UHGV virus genome: UHGV-0173641
Direction: 5' to 3' (one strand)
Length of the DNA stretch: 23,184 nt
Source: a virus
The position numbers were made by a program, and so were the translations under genes. Positions 237-10,590 of the stretch are shown piece after piece. Numbering within the stretch: position 1 is the first letter of the stretch; each line of letters starts with the position of its first letter. The notes beneath the pieces are model-generated. The model did not search any database, was not told where the DNA came from, and was given only the letters and a program-made list of their open reading frames with translations.

Positions 237-1256
237 TTAATCCCCCGTGGACACTGCGTGGACACTTACGCCACCTTTCAGCGGATTAAGGGCCACCGCA
301 TCCTGCAGGTAATCCGGTGCAAAATGCGCATATGCCATTGTTTGCTGAATGGTTGCGTGGCCAAGAATCTTCTGAAGCGCAATAATGTTTCCTCCGTTCA
401 TCACAAAATGGCTGGCGAACGTATGCCGCAGCACATGTGCAGCCTGGCCTTTTGGTAAATCGGGCTTAACTCTTTTCAGCGCCAAGCAGAATTCCCGGTA
501 CTTCACCTCAAACAAGCCGCCTGTTTCTCTGGTTTTGATCGCCTCACAAACTGCCTGCGAAATTGGCACTGTTCTCTTTCGGCCATTTTTGGTTTCAAGA
601 AACGTTACACGGTTATGAACTATCTGTTCACCACGAAGCTTACAAGCTTCACTCCAGCGCGCCCCTGTGCTTAAACACAAAAGCGCAACACGCCAGTAGT
701 CGCCCTCCAATGTATCGAGCAATAGCGCTACTTCCTTCCGGGACAGGAAAGCCATTTCTCGCGGGGATACATAAAGAATAGAAATCCCCCTTACCGGATG
801 CTCTGCATCCCAGAGGCCTATTTTCTTCAGTACGGTAAACATTCCGGATAACCGATTCATATATCTGTTAGCAGATGACGGTTTCAATCCATCAGCTATC
901 TTTTGAGAACGCCACGCGATAATTTTCAGCTTATCAAGATCCACAGCCTGCATATCAGCGCCAAGCTCATTGATTATGTTGCGCAGTTGTTTTCGGTCTT
1001 CTTCCGCCTTACGCCTGTGCTGGCCGTGATACATCCACCACAACTCAAGCAAATCATTTAGCGTTCGACGATCACGGTAGCCCTGTATATATTCCCGCTT
1101 TTCAGCGTTCGCCATGATGTAGCGTTCAGTGGCCACCGCTACCGATTTTTTGTCAAATACCTTACGCACGCGCTTTCCCTTGCGTCCGTTCGGCCTGATG
1201 TCCAGCAAATAACGACCATCTTCGAGCTTCTTAATCGACATCGCGAAGCCCTCCAA
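237..1256 (-). CDS. int: Phage tyrosine integrase (P2-type site-specific recombinase)
   Basis: 339-aa ORF. C-terminal catalytic region (ARWSE...HVLRHTFASH...LGHATIQQTMAYAH) matches the tyrosine recombinase R..HxxR..Y pattern. Sits at the prophage end next to the repressor, as in P2. Confidence 0.9.
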   Translation of the reverse strand: MEGFAMSIKKLEDGRYLLDIRPNGRKGKRVRKVFDKKSVAVATERYIMANAEKREYIQGYRDRRTLNDLLELWWMYHGQHRRKAEEDRKQLRNIINELGADMQAVDLDKLKIIAWRSQKIADGLKPSSANRYMNRLSGMFTVLKKIGLWDAEHPVRGISILYVSPREMAFLSRKEVALLLDTLEGDYWRVALLCLSTGARWSEACKLRGEQIVHNRVTFLETKNGRKRTVPISQAVCEAIKTRETGGLFEVKYREFCLALKRVKPDLPKGQAAHVLRHTFASHFVMNGGNIIALQKILGHATIQQTMAYAHFAPDYLQDAVALNPLKGGVSVHAVSTGD

Positions 1257-1337: not shown

Positions 1338-1658
1338 TCAGCGGGGTAATTTTTGTTTTGTTTCGGTTGAACTCTGATCGCCCTCCAAACTGGAGAAGCC
1401 ATCAAGAGAGAGAGCCGGAGAAATTTGCCCAACCTCCGGCATCGTTTCATCTGTTGATAACCAATAAGCATACTTCTTAAATTTTGGGTGTTTCGTAACC
1501 TTAAGTAAGGCCCCCTCTGTTACTTGCTTCCCCCTCACCTCATAGTTAGTTACCGTCCCATAAGGCAGCCCAACACAATCCGCAAACTCCTGGCGGGTCA
1601 TACCTTCTGCTTCACGAATCAGGCGAAATTTTTCACCCATGCTTGACAAAGATGCCAT
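1338..1658 (-). CDS. C: Immunity repressor, P2 C-type (small HTH repressor)
   Basis: Translation ...EKFRLIREAEGMTRQEFADCVGLPYGTVTNYE...ETMPEVGQISPALS resembles P2 C as I recall it (GVPYGTLSYYE, QIAPESGQIAPALA). Start chosen at the Met at 1658 (GGAGG about 10 nt upstream on the - strand; length ~106 aa, near P2 C at 99 aa). The ORF stays open to 1703 and a Met at 1640 is also possible. Confidence 0.8.
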   Translation of the reverse strand: MASLSSMGEKFRLIREAEGMTRQEFADCVGLPYGTVTNYEVRGKQVTEGALLKVTKHPKFKKYAYWLSTDETMPEVGQISPALSLDGFSSLEGDQSSTETKQKLPR

Positions 1659-1774
1659 ATCGGGCATATCCTCCATCGCAAACATGCCACATCGGGCACT
1701 CACACATAAAAAAGCTCAAATAAGCCTATATAAGCCATTTTGAGCCATTCGAACGAATTAAGGAGATTACCACA
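1641..1774. promoter_or_regulatory. C/cox lysis-lysogeny switch region with candidate divergent/face-to-face promoters and operator repeats
   Basis: Two direct repeats, gccatatcgggcatatc (1654-1670) and gccacatcgggcactc (1686-1701). Perfect TTGACA at 1643-1648 on the + strand; TATATAA-like box near 1727-1733. Lies between divergently transcribed repressor and cox. Confidence 0.45.
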
Positions 1775-2425: not shown

Positions 2426-2704
2426 ATGACCAAAGAGCATGCACAAGGTGTATTTATCCGTTTTATTGATTTTCGCGGTGAACTGTTATTACGCGCATCA
2501 GCCATTGACGGAGTTGTTCCATCCGAAAAAAACGCAGCTACTTACGTTTATCTGAACGGTACGCGCCTGACTGTGGAGCTTCCGTACCAGACCGTACGAG
2601 AAATCATTAGCGAAGCTGAAAAGGCACGTCAGGTTAATGGCGATGAACCCTATATCGAAATTATTTGTATGGATTCAGAAACTGAAATTCAGAAAGCAGA
2701 TTAA
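2426..2704 (+). CDS. Hypothetical early-region protein (~92 aa)
   Basis: ORF starting at ATG 2426, 11 bp after the previous stop. No family recognised. Confidence 0.5.
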   Translation: MTKEHAQGVFIRFIDFRGELLLRASAIDGVVPSEKNAATYVYLNGTRLTVELPYQTVREIISEAEKARQVNGDEPYIEIICMDSETEIQKAD

Positions 2705-2715
2705 AGGGCGTTGCG

Positions 2716-2958
2716 ATGGGCAAAGAATATAAAACTCTCATTAACAAAGCACTTGAGCGTTTTTATTTTCGCTTAAGTGCATCAGGCGCTCATGCTGAAC
2801 GTGCAGCCCGTGACTCATTGACCAGGGCAATCCGGAGTCTGTATGACGTGGCTTTTTACGCTGATGATCTGGATGCACTTAACGAACTTTCCGAGCTGAT
2901 CTGTGCCGCAGAATGCGGGGAACATATTGAACCGTATCAGCTGGGGAATATCGCATGA
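2716..2958 (+). CDS. Hypothetical early-region protein (80 aa)
   Basis: ORF preceded by a weak SD; its stop overlaps the next start (ATGA at 2955-2958). Confidence 0.55.
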   Translation: MGKEYKTLINKALERFYFRLSASGAHAERAARDSLTRAIRSLYDVAFYADDLDALNELSELICAAECGEHIEPYQLGNIA

Positions 2959-3068
2959 GTATATTTATCTCATGGCCTGTTCTGATTATTTCGGTGGCCT
3001 GCGCCATTAGGATTATGCGAATTATTCATTCAGTAAAAAAGATTGAACGTTTTTTCACTGGTGAATAA
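2955..3068 (+). CDS. Small hydrophobic peptide (37 aa), predicted single transmembrane helix
   Basis: My translation: MSIFISWPVLIISVACAIRIMRIIHSVKKIERFFTGE. ATG overlaps the upstream stop (ATGA), suggesting translational coupling. Too short for the ORF track. Confidence 0.35.
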   Translation: MSIFISWPVLIISVACAIRIMRIIHSVKKIERFFTGE

Positions 3069-3161
3069 CGATACAAATAAAACATCAAATTAAATAAGAA
3101 AACGTGAAAACCATCCGTATTAACGGAGGTATTCGCACACGCAAATAACGGAGATACAAAA

Positions 3162-3572
3162 ATGCACGCAAAAGAAGAAGGTATCATCAGAGCACTGAGA
3201 GAAATTTCAAAGATGGAAAGCGAAGTAACGAAAAAAGCCGTAGCAAATAATCATATAGACGTCGCGACCCACACAATGATAGTCGCAAAAGTCACGGCAG
3301 AAGCCGCCAAAATCATCGAAGAACAGGGTGCGGAACTTACGCTTTTCAAAACTCAACCAGTCACCGGACTGGATTTATCTAACACCGGACGCCTTATTTA
3401 CACAATTGGCTCGGAGCCACAGCAATACACCATTATCGCCGGATTACAGGATAAATACTTGATCACTCCTCACCCCATAAGGGAATCAGAAATTCTGACA
3501 AATCTCCGCCTGATAGAGCGCTCTCAAGTCGCATTCATTGATGGCGCGCAACGTGCCGTATTTAACGCATAG
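3162..3572 (+). CDS. Hypothetical protein (136 aa) in an AT-rich islet; possible moron/accessory gene
   Basis: Clean ORF with GGAG about 9 nt upstream of the ATG, preceded by ~100 bp of visibly AT-rich non-coding DNA (3069-3161). No family recognised. Confidence 0.6.
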   Translation: MHAKEEGIIRALREISKMESEVTKKAVANNHIDVATHTMIVAKVTAEAAKIIEEQGAELTLFKTQPVTGLDLSNTGRLIYTIGSEPQQYTIIAGLQDKYLITPHPIRESEILTNLRLIERSQVAFIDGAQRAVFNA

Positions 3573-3595
3573 GGCTATTGGGCAAAGAGAGCGTA

Positions 3596-3799
3596 ATGGC
3601 AATTAAGCATTTTCCCGTCGTTCGCTTTACCTCCAGAGGACGCGAATACGAGGTCGACGAACGCCTGATTACCACTATCGACAAACATCGTTCGGAAAAG
3701 GATGCACACCACATCTACCTCACTGACGGCACTTATTTCTGCGCCACTAACGTGGCGCGGGTGAATCTTATCCGACAGGTACAGGAGCCACGCAGATGA
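3596..3799 (+). CDS. Hypothetical small protein (~67 aa)
   Basis: ORF frame 3578-3799; ATG at 3596 preferred (GAGAG 6-10 nt upstream), TTG at 3578 possible. Stop overlaps the next start (ATGA at 3796-3799). Confidence 0.5.
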   Translation: MAIKHFPVVRFTSRGREYEVDERLITTIDKHRSEKDAHHIYLTDGTYFCATNVARVNLIRQVQEPRR

Positions 3800-4062
3800 C
3801 CATTCTGGACTACATCGCTACCCATCCGGGTTGTAGCGGCGGAGAAATCGCAGCAGCACTGAATACTCCAACCACAGCCATTAATGCTGAGTTACGCCAA
3901 CTTTGGCGCGGCGGCTTAGTCATCAGAACAAACCGCAGCACAGGTGGTCGCGCTCGCAAAACTGGAGGCCAGGCTTCTTACCACGTAAACCCGATGCCGT
4001 TCGGGTGTAGCAATCCACTTACTCACATGTTTAACCAGCTACTGAAGGAAGCCAGAGCATGA
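3796..4062 (+). CDS. Hypothetical protein (88 aa), possible winged-helix DNA-binding fold
   Basis: ORF coupled to neighbours by ATGA overlaps at both ends. N-terminal segment (ILDYIATHPGCSGGEIAAALN...INAELRQLWRGGLV) looks wHTH-like; fold assignment is inference. Confidence 0.55.
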   Translation: MTILDYIATHPGCSGGEIAAALNTPTTAINAELRQLWRGGLVIRTNRSTGGRARKTGGQASYHVNPMPFGCSNPLTHMFNQLLKEARA

Positions 4063-4358
4063 GCACCATCAACCACCAGAAGCTACGCGAACTGGCATTT
4101 GCCCTGCAACGAATGGCAACGCCTCAAAAATTACTGGCATTTCGCGCAATGCTCTCGCCGTCTGCTGTGCTGGCACTGCTGGATGAGCTGGAGCACGCCA
4201 GAACCACGGCTCCTGCCATTCGCCTCACGCTCCATCATGAAATCACTGATTTCTGCGCGACATTGGAGGCGCCGGGCGAACCGGAAACGCCGGAAGCAAT
4301 ACAGCAAGAGCTGCTGCAACGCATTGACAAGGTTTTTGATTTTTTTCTGAACCAGTAA
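4059..4358 (+). CDS. Hypothetical protein (99 aa)
   Basis: ORF with ATGA coupling to the upstream gene; acidic, helical-looking sequence. Confidence 0.55.
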   Translation: MSTINHQKLRELAFALQRMATPQKLLAFRAMLSPSAVLALLDELEHARTTAPAIRLTLHHEITDFCATLEAPGEPETPEAIQQELLQRIDKVFDFFLNQ

Positions 4359-4479
4359 GAAACCAGAACATGCACACACAAAAAAACCGCTTGCCATGCC
4401 TCAATCGGTCAGGTTACATTTCCGCCGCACCTCATAAAACGGGTGCCGGGATTTCCACCCCGCTGACAACTACAGCGCA

Positions 4480-4503
4480 CAACCGCGCCAGCGGTTTTTT
4501 TGT
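4480..4503 (+). terminator. Candidate intrinsic terminator or attenuator inside the early operon
   Basis: aaccgc-gcca-gcggtt hairpin (6-bp stem, 4-nt loop) followed by a T7 run at 4494-4500, inside a ~320 bp non-coding gap. Confidence 0.45.
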
Positions 4504-4680
4504 GCGTACTGTATCGCCACGTCTTTTTCGCACACGAATTATGGTGGGGCGTACGGGGCCGACTTCGGTCGGGCCGGGTTCTGTAGTTGCCGGTTGTGGA
4601 AACCCTGTACGTCTCACCACCCCGAGTTTTCCACCTCTGGATGGTGAGTTTTCAAAACTTGCAACTACAGAGGCCACACC

Positions 4681-4911
4681 ATGGCAAACCGCAAACAGCA
4701 CCGCGCTATCGCGGAGCGTCGTCACATCCAGACTGAAATCAACCGCAGACTTTTCCGCGCATCACGCGTCGCGCAAATCATGCACATCAATATGCTGCAT
4801 GAGCGCAGCCACGCACTATCAAACATCTATTCCGCCGCTGTTTTCAGCTATCTGGCGGATGATCTGCACGAGCTTCAACAGCTCATCCAGCAGCAAAACA
4901 AACTCCATTAA
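4681..4911 (+). CDS. Hypothetical small basic protein (76 aa)
   Basis: ORF with GAGG ~8 nt upstream of the ATG; protein-like composition, unlike the overlapping 205-aa S/T/R-rich frame (4370-4987) that I reject. Confidence 0.45.
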   Translation: MANRKQHRAIAERRHIQTEINRRLFRASRVAQIMHINMLHERSHALSNIYSAAVFSYLADDLHELQQLIQQQNKLH

Positions 4912-4983
4912 TTCCTGTTCCGGGCCTTTCCTGCACCTTGCGGCGGGAGGCCTTCGCACATCTGTAACCAGAGGATTGCCGCA

Positions 4984-5349
4984 ATGATTCTCGCCAACGA
5001 CTTTCTTGAATACCTGCTCAACACAGAGCGTGATCTTGCCGTTCGCGTGCGTGAACGTTATGACATGTACCTGAAATCCCTGCCTGTACCGCAGCTCGCT
5101 GACGGAAAGATTGTTATTGATGGTCGCTACATGATTGACAGCCACGAGGGAAATTACAGGCTTTACCGCATTGAAGGTGGCACCCCGTACGTTATTGGCA
5201 TTTACCAGCGCCCATCCTCTGCAATCGTCGATGTGATTGCCGACAGCATCCGCATCACACATCGCCATGCCGACACAGAAGACACCGTGCTGGAAATTCA
5301 GCGGCTGGCTACAGTCTGCCGCGACACCCTGAATGGCATGACGAAGTAA
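4984..5349 (+). CDS. Hypothetical protein (121 aa) immediately upstream of replication gene A
   Basis: ORF with GAGG upstream; stop 6 bp before the A start. Occupies the position of a replication accessory gene (P2 B-like position) but no similarity recognised. Confidence 0.55.
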   Translation: MILANDFLEYLLNTERDLAVRVRERYDMYLKSLPVPQLADGKIVIDGRYMIDSHEGNYRLYRIEGGTPYVIGIYQRPSSAIVDVIADSIRITHRHADTEDTVLEIQRLATVCRDTLNGMTK

Positions 5350-8254: not shown

Positions 8255-9214
8255 ATGAAAATCTGTATCGACGACGGCTCCACCAACATCAAGCTGGCAT
8301 GGACTGAGAACGGCGAACGCCGCAACGCCATCAGCCCGAACAGCTTCAAATCGGAATGGTCTGCGCCGTTCGGTGGCATGCAGCCCGCAAACTACATGCT
8401 TGATGGCGTGCGCTATGGTTTTGATCCGGTCAGCGATCGATTTGTCCAGACGACCGACACGCAATACCAGTACAGCGATGTGAATGTAATTGCCATTCAT
8501 CACGCGCTGGTCAAATCAGGCATCACGCCACAGGAGGTGGATGTGGTTGTCACCCTGCCACTGAGCGAGTATTTCGACACAAACGCACAACCGGACATGG
8601 CCAACATCAACCGCAAAAAAGCGAACGTTATGCGCCCGGTGGAATACCAGAACGGCGAAGCATTCACTATCCGTAATGTACGGGTTATGCCTGAATCCAT
8701 TCCGGCTGGCTTTAAAGCACTGGCTGACATGAGTCCGTTTGAATCCCTGCTGATTGTGGATTTAGGCGGAACCACGCTGGATGTGGCAAAGGTTCAGGGA
8801 CAACTGGCAGGTATCAGCCAGGTGTTTTGCGATCCACACGTAGGCGTTTCCCTGATGGCCGATGCCGTACTGTCGGTGATGGCCACCAACGGTATGCGTA
8901 CCAGTCACCACATCGCCAATACCATTATCGAACATCGCCATGATGAAGCCTGGCTGCGCCAGCACATCCACAATGACGCGCATTACGGCAGCCTGATGGC
9001 GGTTATTCGTGAAAAGGAAGAAACACTGAAACAACGAGTGATCCGCGCGCTGGCGGGTTTTTCGGGTTACGGGCGGGTGATGGTTGTCGGTGGCGGGGCG
9101 GAGATTGTGGCACCCGCTATCCGCGAAGCCTGCGGAGTTAATGCGGCTTTCATCGCAGACGGGGTGCCACAGTTTGCTCTGGTCAATGGTTTGTACGCAA
9201 TGGACAAGGAGTAA
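8255..9214 (+). CDS. parM: ParM/StbA-like actin-type ATPase (type II plasmid partition family)
   Basis: 319 aa. N-terminus MKICIDDGSTNIKLAW and LIVDLGGTTLDVAK, plus SDVNVIAIHHAL, VMPESIPAG, MVVGGGAE and LVNGLY, match plasmid R1 ParM as I recall it (MLVFIDDGSTNIKLQW..., LIIDLGGTTLDIS, VMVIGGGAE). Strong AAGGA RBS. Confidence 0.88.
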   Translation: MKICIDDGSTNIKLAWTENGERRNAISPNSFKSEWSAPFGGMQPANYMLDGVRYGFDPVSDRFVQTTDTQYQYSDVNVIAIHHALVKSGITPQEVDVVVTLPLSEYFDTNAQPDMANINRKKANVMRPVEYQNGEAFTIRNVRVMPESIPAGFKALADMSPFESLLIVDLGGTTLDVAKVQGQLAGISQVFCDPHVGVSLMADAVLSVMATNGMRTSHHIANTIIEHRHDEAWLRQHIHNDAHYGSLMAVIREKEETLKQRVIRALAGFSGYGRVMVVGGGAEIVAPAIREACGVNAAFIADGVPQFALVNGLYAMDKE

Positions 9215-9582: not shown

Positions 9583-10590
9583 GTGAGCATCATTCAGCGC
9601 TGCCGAGCAGAAAACACTTTTAATTTGGTTTCCATGTCTGGCGGGAAAGACTCACTGGCGCAATGTTTGTATGCCATAGAAAACGATATACAGCATGAGC
9701 GAGTGTTTGCTGATACGGGGCACGAACACCCACAAACGATGGAGTACCTTGACTATCTGGAACAAAAGCTGGGACCAATTCGCCGCGTAAAAGCCGACTT
9801 CACTCGCCAGATAGAAGGTAAGCGCAAATTCATTGCTGAAAAATGGCCAGTATCTCTTGTTGCAGAGTGCGGAATGACGCCTGATGAAGCAGCGGAACGT
9901 GTTGCTTGTGCGCTGGAAATCCTCCACCCAACCGGAAATCCATTTCTTGATCTGTGCATGTGGAAAGGTCGTTTCCCGAGCACTAAAGCGCGGTTCTGTA
10001 CATTCGAACTGAAACACGAACCAGTGCGCACTCAGGTGGTGCAACCTGCGCTTGATGAATATGACGAAGTTATCTCCTGGCAGGGTGTGCGTGCTCAGGA
10101 ATCGCCATCGAGGGCACGCCTGCAAGTGTGGGAGGAAGATGCGGACAATACCCCCGGATTGCATGTCTATCGTCCGATTTTCAACTGGCTACATGAGGAT
10201 GTTTTCGCTATTGCCAGGCGTCACGGGATTAAACCCAACCCGCTCTACCAACAAGGATGCAGCCGCGTTGGGTGTATGCCATGCATTCATGCCAGAAAAT
10301 CTGAACTGGCGGAAATTTTTCAGCGTTGGCCAGAGGAAATCGCCAGAGTGGCAGAGTGGGAACGATTAGTTGCAGCCTGCTCTCGCCGCGGCAACTCAAC
10401 GTTTTTCCCGTCAACTCATGACCCGCGCCGGGCAGAACGTCGCATAGATGTTGTTACCGTAGACAGCTACGGAATCGAAACCTATCGCGACTGGGCAATG
10501 ACAACCCGGGGCGGCGCTCAATTTGACCTGCTGGCGAGCACGAACGATAAGGCGGTGTGCAACAGTGTTTATGCGGGAGTATGCGAATGA
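9583..10590 (+). CDS. PAPS reductase-like / PP-loop ATP pyrophosphatase family protein (335 aa) with C-terminal Cys cluster
   Basis: N-terminal PP-loop SMSGGKDS (SGGxDS) typical of the PAPS reductase / DndC-like superfamily. Cysteine cluster CSRVGCMPC (Cx4Cx2C). GTG start with strong AAAGGAGG RBS. Last gene before the cos region. Confidence 0.8.
   Translation: MSIIQRCRAENTFNLVSMSGGKDSLAQCLYAIENDIQHERVFADTGHEHPQTMEYLDYLEQKLGPIRRVKADFTRQIEGKRKFIAEKWPVSLVAECGMTPDEAAERVACALEILHPTGNPFLDLCMWKGRFPSTKARFCTFELKHEPVRTQVVQPALDEYDEVISWQGVRAQESPSRARLQVWEEDADNTPGLHVYRPIFNWLHEDVFAIARRHGIKPNPLYQQGCSRVGCMPCIHARKSELAEIFQRWPEEIARVAEWERLVAACSRRGNSTFFPSTHDPRRAERRIDVVTVDSYGIETYRDWAMTTRGGAQFDLLASTNDKAVCNSVYAGVCE

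Follow-up and report, generated by a model that had tools for sequence, protein, structure and literature searches.

Introduction

Morons are extra genes that stand between conserved phage genes, carry their own promoter and terminator, and are expressed in the lysogen. In P2-like phages, accessory and defence genes occupy hotspots at the old/tin and Z/fun positions. Small membrane peptides are known from the type I toxins (Hok, Ldr, TisB, Ibs and ShoB), which have fewer than 50 aa, one hydrophobic helix and a charged C-terminal tail, and membrane proteins also confer superinfection exclusion, e.g. T4 Imm, P22 Sie and HK97 gp15. Closer still to the genes described below are gp07 of phage P88, annotated as a "membrane protein" (YP_009113050.1), and the members of phrog_9338, of 136 to 138 aa, in vB_EcoM-569R5, vB_EcoM-705R2 and Shae_phiSM.

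In the present study, we analysed a window of 23,184 nt from the UHGV virus genome UHGV-0173641, to which all coordinates refer. A preliminary description had regarded the interval 2955-3572 as an AT-rich islet of acquired moron DNA, encoding a 37-aa peptide with the architecture of a toxin or exclusion factor and a 136-aa protein of no recognisable family. Like the lambdoid morons in the HK97/HK022 sense, the 136-aa gene is inserted between conserved genes, being present in some genomes and absent in close relatives. Unlike them, it has only a Shine-Dalgarno (SD) sequence of its own, is co-oriented within the early operon and has a composition like that of its neighbours. The peptide shares its small size, single hydrophobic helix and charged tail with the type I toxins; it differs from them in having no antisense RNA and no separate transcription unit and in being coupled to the upstream gene, and there is no sequence similarity between them. 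As for superinfection exclusion, the predicted position of the peptide gene in the Pe operon, with no promoter of its own detected, argues against its expression in the lysogen. Like the P2 hotspots, the site that holds the 136-aa gene is a fixed place between conserved genes for alternative cargo; unlike them, this site lies in an early lytic operon, its cargo is limited to one or two small genes with no assigned function, and no cargo protein searched against PADLOC gave a match.

The window peptide is 94.6% identical to P88 gp07 over 37/37 residues, with the same length, the same ATGA overlap with the DUF4754 gene and the same position in the early operon. The 37-mers named "prophage membrane protein" in RefSeq and UniRef, from P88-like prophages of E. 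coli, Shigella and Salmonella, are of the same type (about 95% identity), and a gp07-type 37-mer is carried by CP-933T of O157:H7 EDL933. From these gp07-type peptides, the window copy differs by two replacements, L8P and G19R. The 136-aa protein is likewise of the same kind as the phrog_9338 members named above. What the window holds is a new allele of hypothetical genes that had been annotated before, in a type of prophage that is very common. Among the papers found, none mentions DUF4754, the accessions or phrog_9338; according to its abstract, the paper on P88 concerns host range and receptor recognition, and the passages on CP-933T in two papers carry no gene-level information.

Sequences compared

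The sample used for the counts below comprises 91 sequences, namely the window, nine annotated or genome loci, the locus L091 and 80 IMG/VR loci. The IMG/VR loci were picked solely for DUF4754. L091 was fetched via P0090, a distant 122-aa homologue of the 136-aa protein that came from an exhaustive HMMER search; this locus starts inside the variable slot and hence is without the peptide gene. The left breakpoint of the slot was obtained by aligning the window with P88 and seven other relatives.

Results

Setting in the prophage

Megablast of 2700-3800 placed the window in a P88-like prophage (Xuanwuvirus, Peduoviridae, P2 family) of E. coli. The left flank is E. coli pdxB (99.6% identity), beside which the prophage is integrated. 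The surrounding region, again by megablast of 2700-3800, was found in 1359/5426 complete E. coli genomes. On the plus strand, the genes for Cox (PF10743), DUF4761, a 92-aa protein, DUF4754, the 37-aa peptide, the 136-aa protein, a 67-aa protein, a MarR-type wHTH protein and an Ead/Ea22-like protein follow one another, and downstream of these lie a 940-aa replication endonuclease gene and later the portal, terminase and capsid genes. The gene order of the region matches the RefSeq and GenBank annotations of relatives. Judged from this order and from the relatives, the interval with the 37-aa and 136-aa genes belongs to an early lytic operon that is headed by Cox, in a P2-family prophage. The features are as follows.

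237-1256, minus strand: integrase (open reading frame)
1338-1703, minus strand: HTH repressor, also labelled C (open reading frame)
2716-2958, plus strand: DUF4754 gene, 80 aa (Pfam PF15946, E 1.3e-53; phrog_2549)
2955-3068, plus strand: gene of the predicted 37-aa single-pass membrane peptide (open reading frame; ATGA overlap with the DUF4754 stop)
3069-3142, plus strand: conserved A-rich non-coding spacer, leader for whichever gene comes next (alignment, base counts)
3114-3127, plus strand: hairpin TCCGT-ATTA-ACGGA (alignment of 45 unique sequences)
3143-3582, plus strand: variable cassette, 440 nt, bounded by the spacer and by the 67-aa gene (alignments with P88 and other relatives)
3150-3153, plus strand: Shine-Dalgarno GGAG, 8 nt before the ATG of the 136-aa open reading frame (sequence)
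3162-3572, plus strand: 136-aa accessory protein (phrog_9338)
3596-3799, plus strand: 67-aa gene, conserved right border of the slot (phrog_3459, E 1.1e-45)

A variable slot between conserved genes

Homology with the cargo-less phage P88 and the seven other relatives runs without a break through the peptide gene and the spacer to 3142. Beyond this point, P88, P884B11, PhiR44_2, 520873, 503458 and Chuche pass at once to the 67-aa gene with its SD and start; in all six, this gene directly follows the spacer. On the right, the cassette ends at about 3582/3583, immediately ahead of the SD that serves the 67-aa gene. The variable unit is therefore 3143-3582, which corrects the boundary of the AT-rich islet proposed earlier.

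Among the 91 sequences, the slot is empty in 50, holds a gene of the 136/138-aa type in 35 and an 88-aa gene in five, and contains two genes in one. Carriers of the 136-aa gene include, besides the window, E. coli CFS3292 and the Citrobacter phage Shae_phiSM, and DNA of this type was detected in 836/5426 complete E. coli genomes. The 88-aa cargo (phrog_21900) is unrelated to the 136-aa protein, and its junction lies 9 nt further left; homology of this cargo to the helical hairpin of the 136-aa protein (see below) was considered and rejected at an hhalign probability of 5%. In E. albertii, the slot contains a 137-aa homologue together with a 110-aa gene of phrog_16975. In L091, the distant 122-aa homologue has the same context and is followed by a 111-aa gene of phrog_16975 and then by a 66-aa gene. 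The alternative 88-aa and 111-aa cargo proteins had no PADLOC match at E<=0.01. Neither cargo nor allele was linked to immunity type, and the states of the slot and the types of allele are spread over many immunity-repressor backgrounds.

The 136-aa cassette is thus optional and allele-rich, and the junctions around the slot are clean. The presence or absence among relatives that had been expected of the whole islet applies to this cassette (35/91 loci), and the peptide gene and the spacer are present in all loci that cover them.

The 136-aa protein

The ribosome-binding site reported earlier for this gene was confirmed (GGAG, listed above). The protein matches phrog_9338, a PHROG family with no assigned function, over its full length (E 7e-70, more exactly 7.1e-70), its residues 1-136 aligning with positions 1-138 of a 138-position profile, so that the description of it as a protein with no recognisable family holds for Pfam, NCBIfam and PADLOC (no match in any of them, at E<=1 in PADLOC) and fails for PHROG. 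All 24 members of the family alignment gave only scattered sub-threshold matches in Pfam, and searches of the PDB with the single sequence and with the profile gave nothing below E 0.03. The family is small. Exhaustive HMMER searching of 1.84 billion proteins returned 25 representatives at E<=0.001, all of this one family, and only 4/50,697 phage records contain a member. The close homologues (n=83) are 57-93% identical, and nearly all of those that are named belong to E. coli; the window allele shares 93% identity with the nearest 90%-cluster representative. Shigella and other Enterobacteriaceae contribute further cluster members.

An AF2 model built with more diverse homologues, an earlier model having been poor across the C-terminal half, has a mean pLDDT of 85.5 and predicts an α-helical hairpin (residues 3-64) and a five-stranded SH3-like β-barrel (residues 78-125). 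By inspection, neither a signal peptide nor a transmembrane (TM) segment was evident in the sequence or the model. Structure searches gave only generic matches for the helical hairpin and non-significant ones for the small barrel, and the likeness of the barrel to KOW/Tudor/Sm-type modules that bind nucleic acids or peptides is below significance.

Across the 35 loci with the gene, median identity is 71% in nucleotides and about 62% in amino acids, and the DUF4754 genes of the same loci are 95-100% identical in nucleotides (median 98%). The variation is modular, several types of N-terminal hairpin being recombined with more uniform C-terminal halves. Overall dN/dS is 0.43, with a peak of 0.86 at residues 26-40, which form the turn of the hairpin in the model; this pattern fits a hairpin tip whose selection is relaxed or diversifying. 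Values of dN/dS above 1 do not occur, and dS is high as well; the diversity therefore looks like that of old lineages shuffled by recombination and gives no proof of positive selection or of an arms race.

The same data bear on the view that the operon had this gene ancestrally, as a regulatory or replication-associated component, and lost it repeatedly, and that it is not an accessory gene driven by conflict. Homologues at the same position in E. albertii and L091, the constraint indicated by a dN/dS of 0.43 and the sub-significant resemblance to KOW/Tudor/Sm modules are in keeping with that view. Against it, P88, P884B11, PhiR44_2 and Chuche are isolated, fully functional phages that lack the gene, the slot can hold the unrelated 88-aa gene, and the alleles are independent of repressor type. 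On balance, we consider an ancestral component improbable.

A conserved gene for a probable coupled membrane peptide

The 37-aa open reading frame overlaps the DUF4754 stop by ATGA in 91/91 related loci without variation. Together with the spacer, it is present in 14/14 Xuanwuvirus records of the phage collection and in every examined locus that spans its position (reported as 91/91). The peptide gene and its leader are thus a core part of the P88-like phages. In sequence, the peptide has one hydrophobic segment at residues 3-21 (Kyte-Doolittle 19-mer mean 2.18 in the window and 2.68 in the family consensus), followed by the tail RIIHSVKKIERFFTGE, which is net positive with 4 K/R, 1 H and 2 D/E. 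The overlap, the hydrophobicity and the tail charges all uphold the translationally coupled peptide with one TM helix and a basic tail that had been described; the qualification concerns the window copy, whose two departures from the consensus, L8P and G19R, lie in the hydrophobic segment and are unique to the window within the sample. The exact window variant occurs on 58 NCBI contigs and the consensus on at least 1000, which indicates that the variant is a real lineage and not an error. In a crude, unweighted sum of insertion energies, the two replacements shift the value from -2.9 to +1.7 kcal/mol, and the peptide of the window itself may therefore be weakened.

Is the open reading frame a gene at all? 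It might be non-functional as a protein and kept for the delivery of ribosomes across the junction or as a regulatory element in RNA or DNA. One-base slips in a T5 run replace the last four residues in 7/91 loci (the product has 45 aa in six of them and 30 aa in the seventh), another copy is cut short at 25 aa, the two substitutions in the window are unfriendly to a helix, and the peptide matches nothing in Pfam, NCBIfam or PHROG; moreover, the next gene lies 93 nt downstream, so that coupling to it is not obvious. These observations favour a role other than that of a protein. Nevertheless, the variation is that of a coding sequence. Intact 37-mers make up 81/91 copies, and among 33 unique nucleotide versions the polymorphic sites fall on the three codon positions as 10/5/16, with a pooled pN/pS of 0.27. 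Scored against the consensus, the 25 synonymous sites show 18 variants and the 86 non-synonymous sites also show 18, a density ratio of 0.29 (non-synonymous/synonymous; Fisher p 4e-6) that indicates purifying selection on the peptide. Replacements in the TM segment are mostly hydrophobic for hydrophobic (L/F, V/I/A and A/V/I/T), and the E. albertii peptide is 81% identical as against 75% for its neighbour DUF4754. A non-functional reading frame is therefore decidedly unlikely, and the slips in the T5 run suggest instead that the extreme C-terminus of the peptide may be dispensable. Taken together, the open reading frame looks like a real, translationally coupled gene for a single-pass membrane peptide.

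The peptide had no match in PADLOC-DB v2 at E<=1 and is missing from the supplements of two small-protein surveys of O157/Enterobacteriaceae. The suggestion that it is a toxin or exclusion factor was drawn from its architecture only; with no antisense RNA and no family match, it has not been borne out.

The spacer and its hairpin

The 74-nt spacer contains 34 A (46%), as expected for an unstructured leader before a gene that initiates on its own. Mean column identity is 87% across 45 unique aligned sequences, and the most conserved block is formed by the final 39 nt (3104-3142), which include the hairpin. Its pairing is kept in 224/225 cells (99.6%), with a compensatory double change between CG and UA in 13/45 unique sequences and three single changes to GU, which are compatible with plus-strand RNA only. 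All cargo junctions lie 3-16 nt 3' of the hairpin. The hairpin might shield a processed 5' end, serve as a standby site or merely mark the end of a conserved recombination flank.

An SD-like GGAGG (3125-3129) is partly buried by the hairpin and has no usable start codon downstream. A short open reading frame linked to this motif was rejected, the only candidate start, GTG at 3104, being missing from P88-type sequences. An antisense RNA running from a promoter-like site at 3210-3183 to the minus-strand hairpin (3127-3114) was rejected as well: the number of promoter hits equals chance, the site is not common to the cargo-less relatives, and a minus-strand hairpin RNA is disfavoured by the GU variants, which would be AC mismatches on that strand.

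Expression signals

In a crude consensus scan, which may miss weak or non-σ70 promoters in the AT-rich spacer, no plus-strand σ70-like promoter site was found between 2770 and 4390. The promoter hits in the scanned region total the shuffle expectation, and the sole minus-strand match (3210-3183, 9/12) is within chance expectation. From 3572 to the isrK-type terminator at 4481-4496, no plus-strand terminator-like site was detected, and a weak hairpin inside an open reading frame is the sole plus-strand feature of this kind within 2770-4390. Rfam gave no match in 2900-3600 at E<=1. Thus, no promoter or terminator of their own was detected around either open reading frame, at variance with the autonomy of a moron. 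Most simply, both would be translated once infection or induction has given rise to the early transcript from Pe.

Composition of the AT-rich stretch

The sharp drop in composition noted in the preliminary description is real. In sliding 200-nt windows, the GC content of 2960-3160 is 0.343 against 0.541 for the whole window, the lowest within the prophage; only 0.13% of 200-nt windows reach so low a value, and the sole other dip of comparable depth is in the host flank (1-290). The dip covers the peptide gene and the spacer and does not extend over the 136-aa gene; the latter has a GC content of 0.456 and a GC3 of 0.45, and the four upstream early genes have GC3 values of 0.35-0.50. As for codon usage, the GC3 of the peptide gene (0.35) equals that of the conserved 92-aa gene and lies close to the 0.40 of DUF4754; throughout the left half of the operon, GC3 is lower than in the right half. 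The 37 residues of the peptide include 9 Ile, 4 Ser, 3 Phe and 2 Lys, and, if codons are used as in the other early genes, the amino acids alone predict a GC content of 0.43 as against 0.50-0.53 for the neighbours. The low GC content is therefore largely accounted for by coding rich in Ile, Phe, Ser and Lys, by the low GC3 common to the upstream early genes and by the A-rich leader, and a foreign origin is unnecessary to explain it, as far as composition tells.

In other words, the 136-aa gene resembles the flanking genes in composition, at variance with a moron, and the atypical DNA is the conserved part. The AT-rich half is kept in all relatives, including E. albertii with its 75%-identical DUF4754, and the half with the 136-aa gene is not. 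Presence in all the phage records and in all loci covering the position thus makes the AT-rich DNA the core and the compositionally ordinary DNA the accessory part. It is very unlikely that the whole AT-rich interval is an acquired moron, with a membrane toxin or exclusion factor and a lysogenic-conversion or defence protein: the GC dip, the TM-plus-basic-tail architecture, the patchy occurrence of the 136-aa gene and an AT-rich spacer that could in principle hide a promoter speak for it, and against it stand the retention of the AT-rich part in all relatives, the ATGA coupling of the peptide to a core early gene in 91/91 loci, the ordinary composition of the variable gene, the lack of promoter-like or terminator-like sites bracketing either gene, and the searches without an antisense RNA or a match in Rfam, PADLOC, Pfam or NCBIfam.

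Discussion

Herein, we propose that the interval combines a conserved micropeptide module with an exchangeable accessory slot in the early operon. Taken as a whole, with the functional suggestions made below, this account is rather probable; its structural and evolutionary description is held with high confidence, and the specific functions suggested for the two proteins are tentative and open to considerable doubt.

The conserved core module would consist of the peptide, a single-pass protein of the inner membrane translated by coupling to DUF4754, and of an A-rich leader that ends in an RNA hairpin. Directly 3' of the hairpin would lie the accessory slot, filled here by one allele of phrog_9338, a putatively soluble protein, and its alleles would be exchanged by recombination between the conserved flanks. 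Both genes would be made only when Pe fires, upon infection or induction, and not in the lysogen. According to the positive-inside rule, the peptide probably inserts N-out/C-in, and it may act on a membrane target during lytic growth, possibly in concert with DUF4754 or in stoichiometry with it. As for the 136-aa protein, it is probably dispensable and serves host takeover or counter-defence as a binder or inhibitor, and the variable tip of its helical hairpin may set target specificity. Since the structure searches gave only generic or non-significant matches, this binder or inhibitor role is deduced from architecture and context; in the searches of Pfam, NCBIfam, PHROG and PADLOC, neither the peptide nor the 136-aa protein matched a known toxin, defence or exclusion family.

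A bolder form of this hypothesis is that the slot is dedicated to cassette exchange and that the phrog_9338 proteins are early inhibitors of a variable host defence, satellite or phage protein. Target specificity would then be read by the hypervariable tip (residues of about 20-45), with a constant function left to the SH3-like barrel. This form is rather unlikely. If it is true, about 15% of complete E. coli genomes, O157:H7 among them, would harbour a new counter-defence family.

Conclusions

The interval is ordinary phage "dark matter", within the usual pattern of mosaic early regions in temperate phages. What the analysis usefully yields is a corrected boundary (3143-3582), evidence that the micropeptide gene is real and conserved, and an account of a small accessory slot. 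The lesson for reading composition is that low GC content here flags a conserved micropeptide gene and its leader, which corrects the tempting inference of imported DNA. Two abundant early proteins are thereby highlighted, a conserved 37-aa membrane peptide and an optional, allele-rich 136-aa protein, in a prophage type that a quarter of all complete E. coli genomes bear and to which CP-933T of O157:H7 belongs. If either of them acts in host takeover or in conflicts between phages or between phage and defence, this could easily be tested in existing strains.

Sequence features at the accessory-gene slot

Several features were observed in and beside the slot, the accessory-gene position that follows the membrane-peptide gene of the early operon.

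2976-2978 (codon 8) and 3009-3011 (codon 19), 37-aa peptide ORF: substitutions L8P and G19R, within the transmembrane segment
3049-3054, codons 32-34: T5 run in the peptide ORF, with one-base deletions in relatives
3114-3127, plus strand: small RNA hairpin, inside the conserved block 3104-3142
L017, L032, L059, L060 and L072 (related loci), ~190-460 nt past the peptide start: 88-aa helical protein, phrog_21900, alternative slot content
L010, 3364-3696, and L091, 429-764 (related loci): 110/111-aa protein, phrog_16975, alternative slot content

First, the hairpin buries an SD-like GGAGG that lacks a start codon, and its variants in the alignment of relatives comprise one compensatory exchange between CG and UA pairs together with GU wobbles. 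All of the slot cargo junctions lie just 3' of this hairpin. The phrog_16975 protein accompanies divergent homologues of the 136-aa slot protein in E. albertii and on a metagenomic contig, and PADLOC returned no match for either alternative slot protein.

Second, L8P and G19R were observed only in the window copy among the 91 sampled sequences, and exactly this peptide variant was found on 58 NCBI E. coli contigs. The function of the peptide may be impaired in this lineage. The T5 run has repeatedly lost one base, in L007 and L005 as well as in several IMG/VR loci, and the resulting peptide is 45 or 30 aa long; the peptide ORF of phage 503458 carries paired indels (-4/+1). These indels may represent genuine variants or homopolymer sequencing errors.

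RNA elements and further genes

Downstream in the early operon, two RNA families and a derepression gene were recognized.

4427-4501, plus strand: isrK Hfq-binding sRNA (Rfam, above the gathering score, 63.6 bits, E 1e-11)
4537-4624, plus strand: C4 antisense RNA (Rfam, above the gathering score, 80.5 bits, E 1e-14)
4681-4911, plus strand: 76-aa derepression-protein ORF (Pfam PF25738, 'Derepression protein family', E 1.2e-7)

Both RNA matches fall in the stretch that separates the Ead-like gene from the derepression-protein gene, and a terminator-like hairpin at 4481-4496 corresponds to the isrK end. The 205-aa ORF mechanically called across these RNAs (4370-4987) is probably spurious. The 76-aa ORF, a homologue of which is labelled 'derepression protein' in the P88 and EDL933 annotation, lies just 3' of the C4-like RNA, a layout resembling that of an antirepressor module controlled by an antisense RNA.

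Two further ORFs occupy the interval from replication gene A to the portal gene, a position at which P2-like phages carry variable cargo.

8255-9214, plus strand: 319-aa ORF, no match to PADLOC models
9583-10590, plus strand: neighbouring 335-aa ORF, with a match (best E 6e-25) to the PAPS-reductase-like SspD/BrxP/DndC models of PADLOC

The 335-aa ORF, with its 319-aa neighbour, is possible defence or DNA-modification cargo.

Mosaicism among related loci

This enterobacterial prophage region was also observed in L009, on a contig of 226 kb that bears a Firmicute label (NZ_JBQPOM010000071.1, Vagococcus sp. WN89Y), with a 96% identical DUF4754; the assembly is probably contaminated or mislabelled. 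The repressor and cox genes, ~900-1750 nt upstream of the peptide ORF, were compared in the 80 IMG/VR loci chosen for DUF4754 (L011-L090). Loci with 99% identical DUF4754 proteins differ in their immunity repressors, of which at least eight unrelated types were observed. Thus, the immunity region shows strong mosaicism when compared with the remainder of the early operon.
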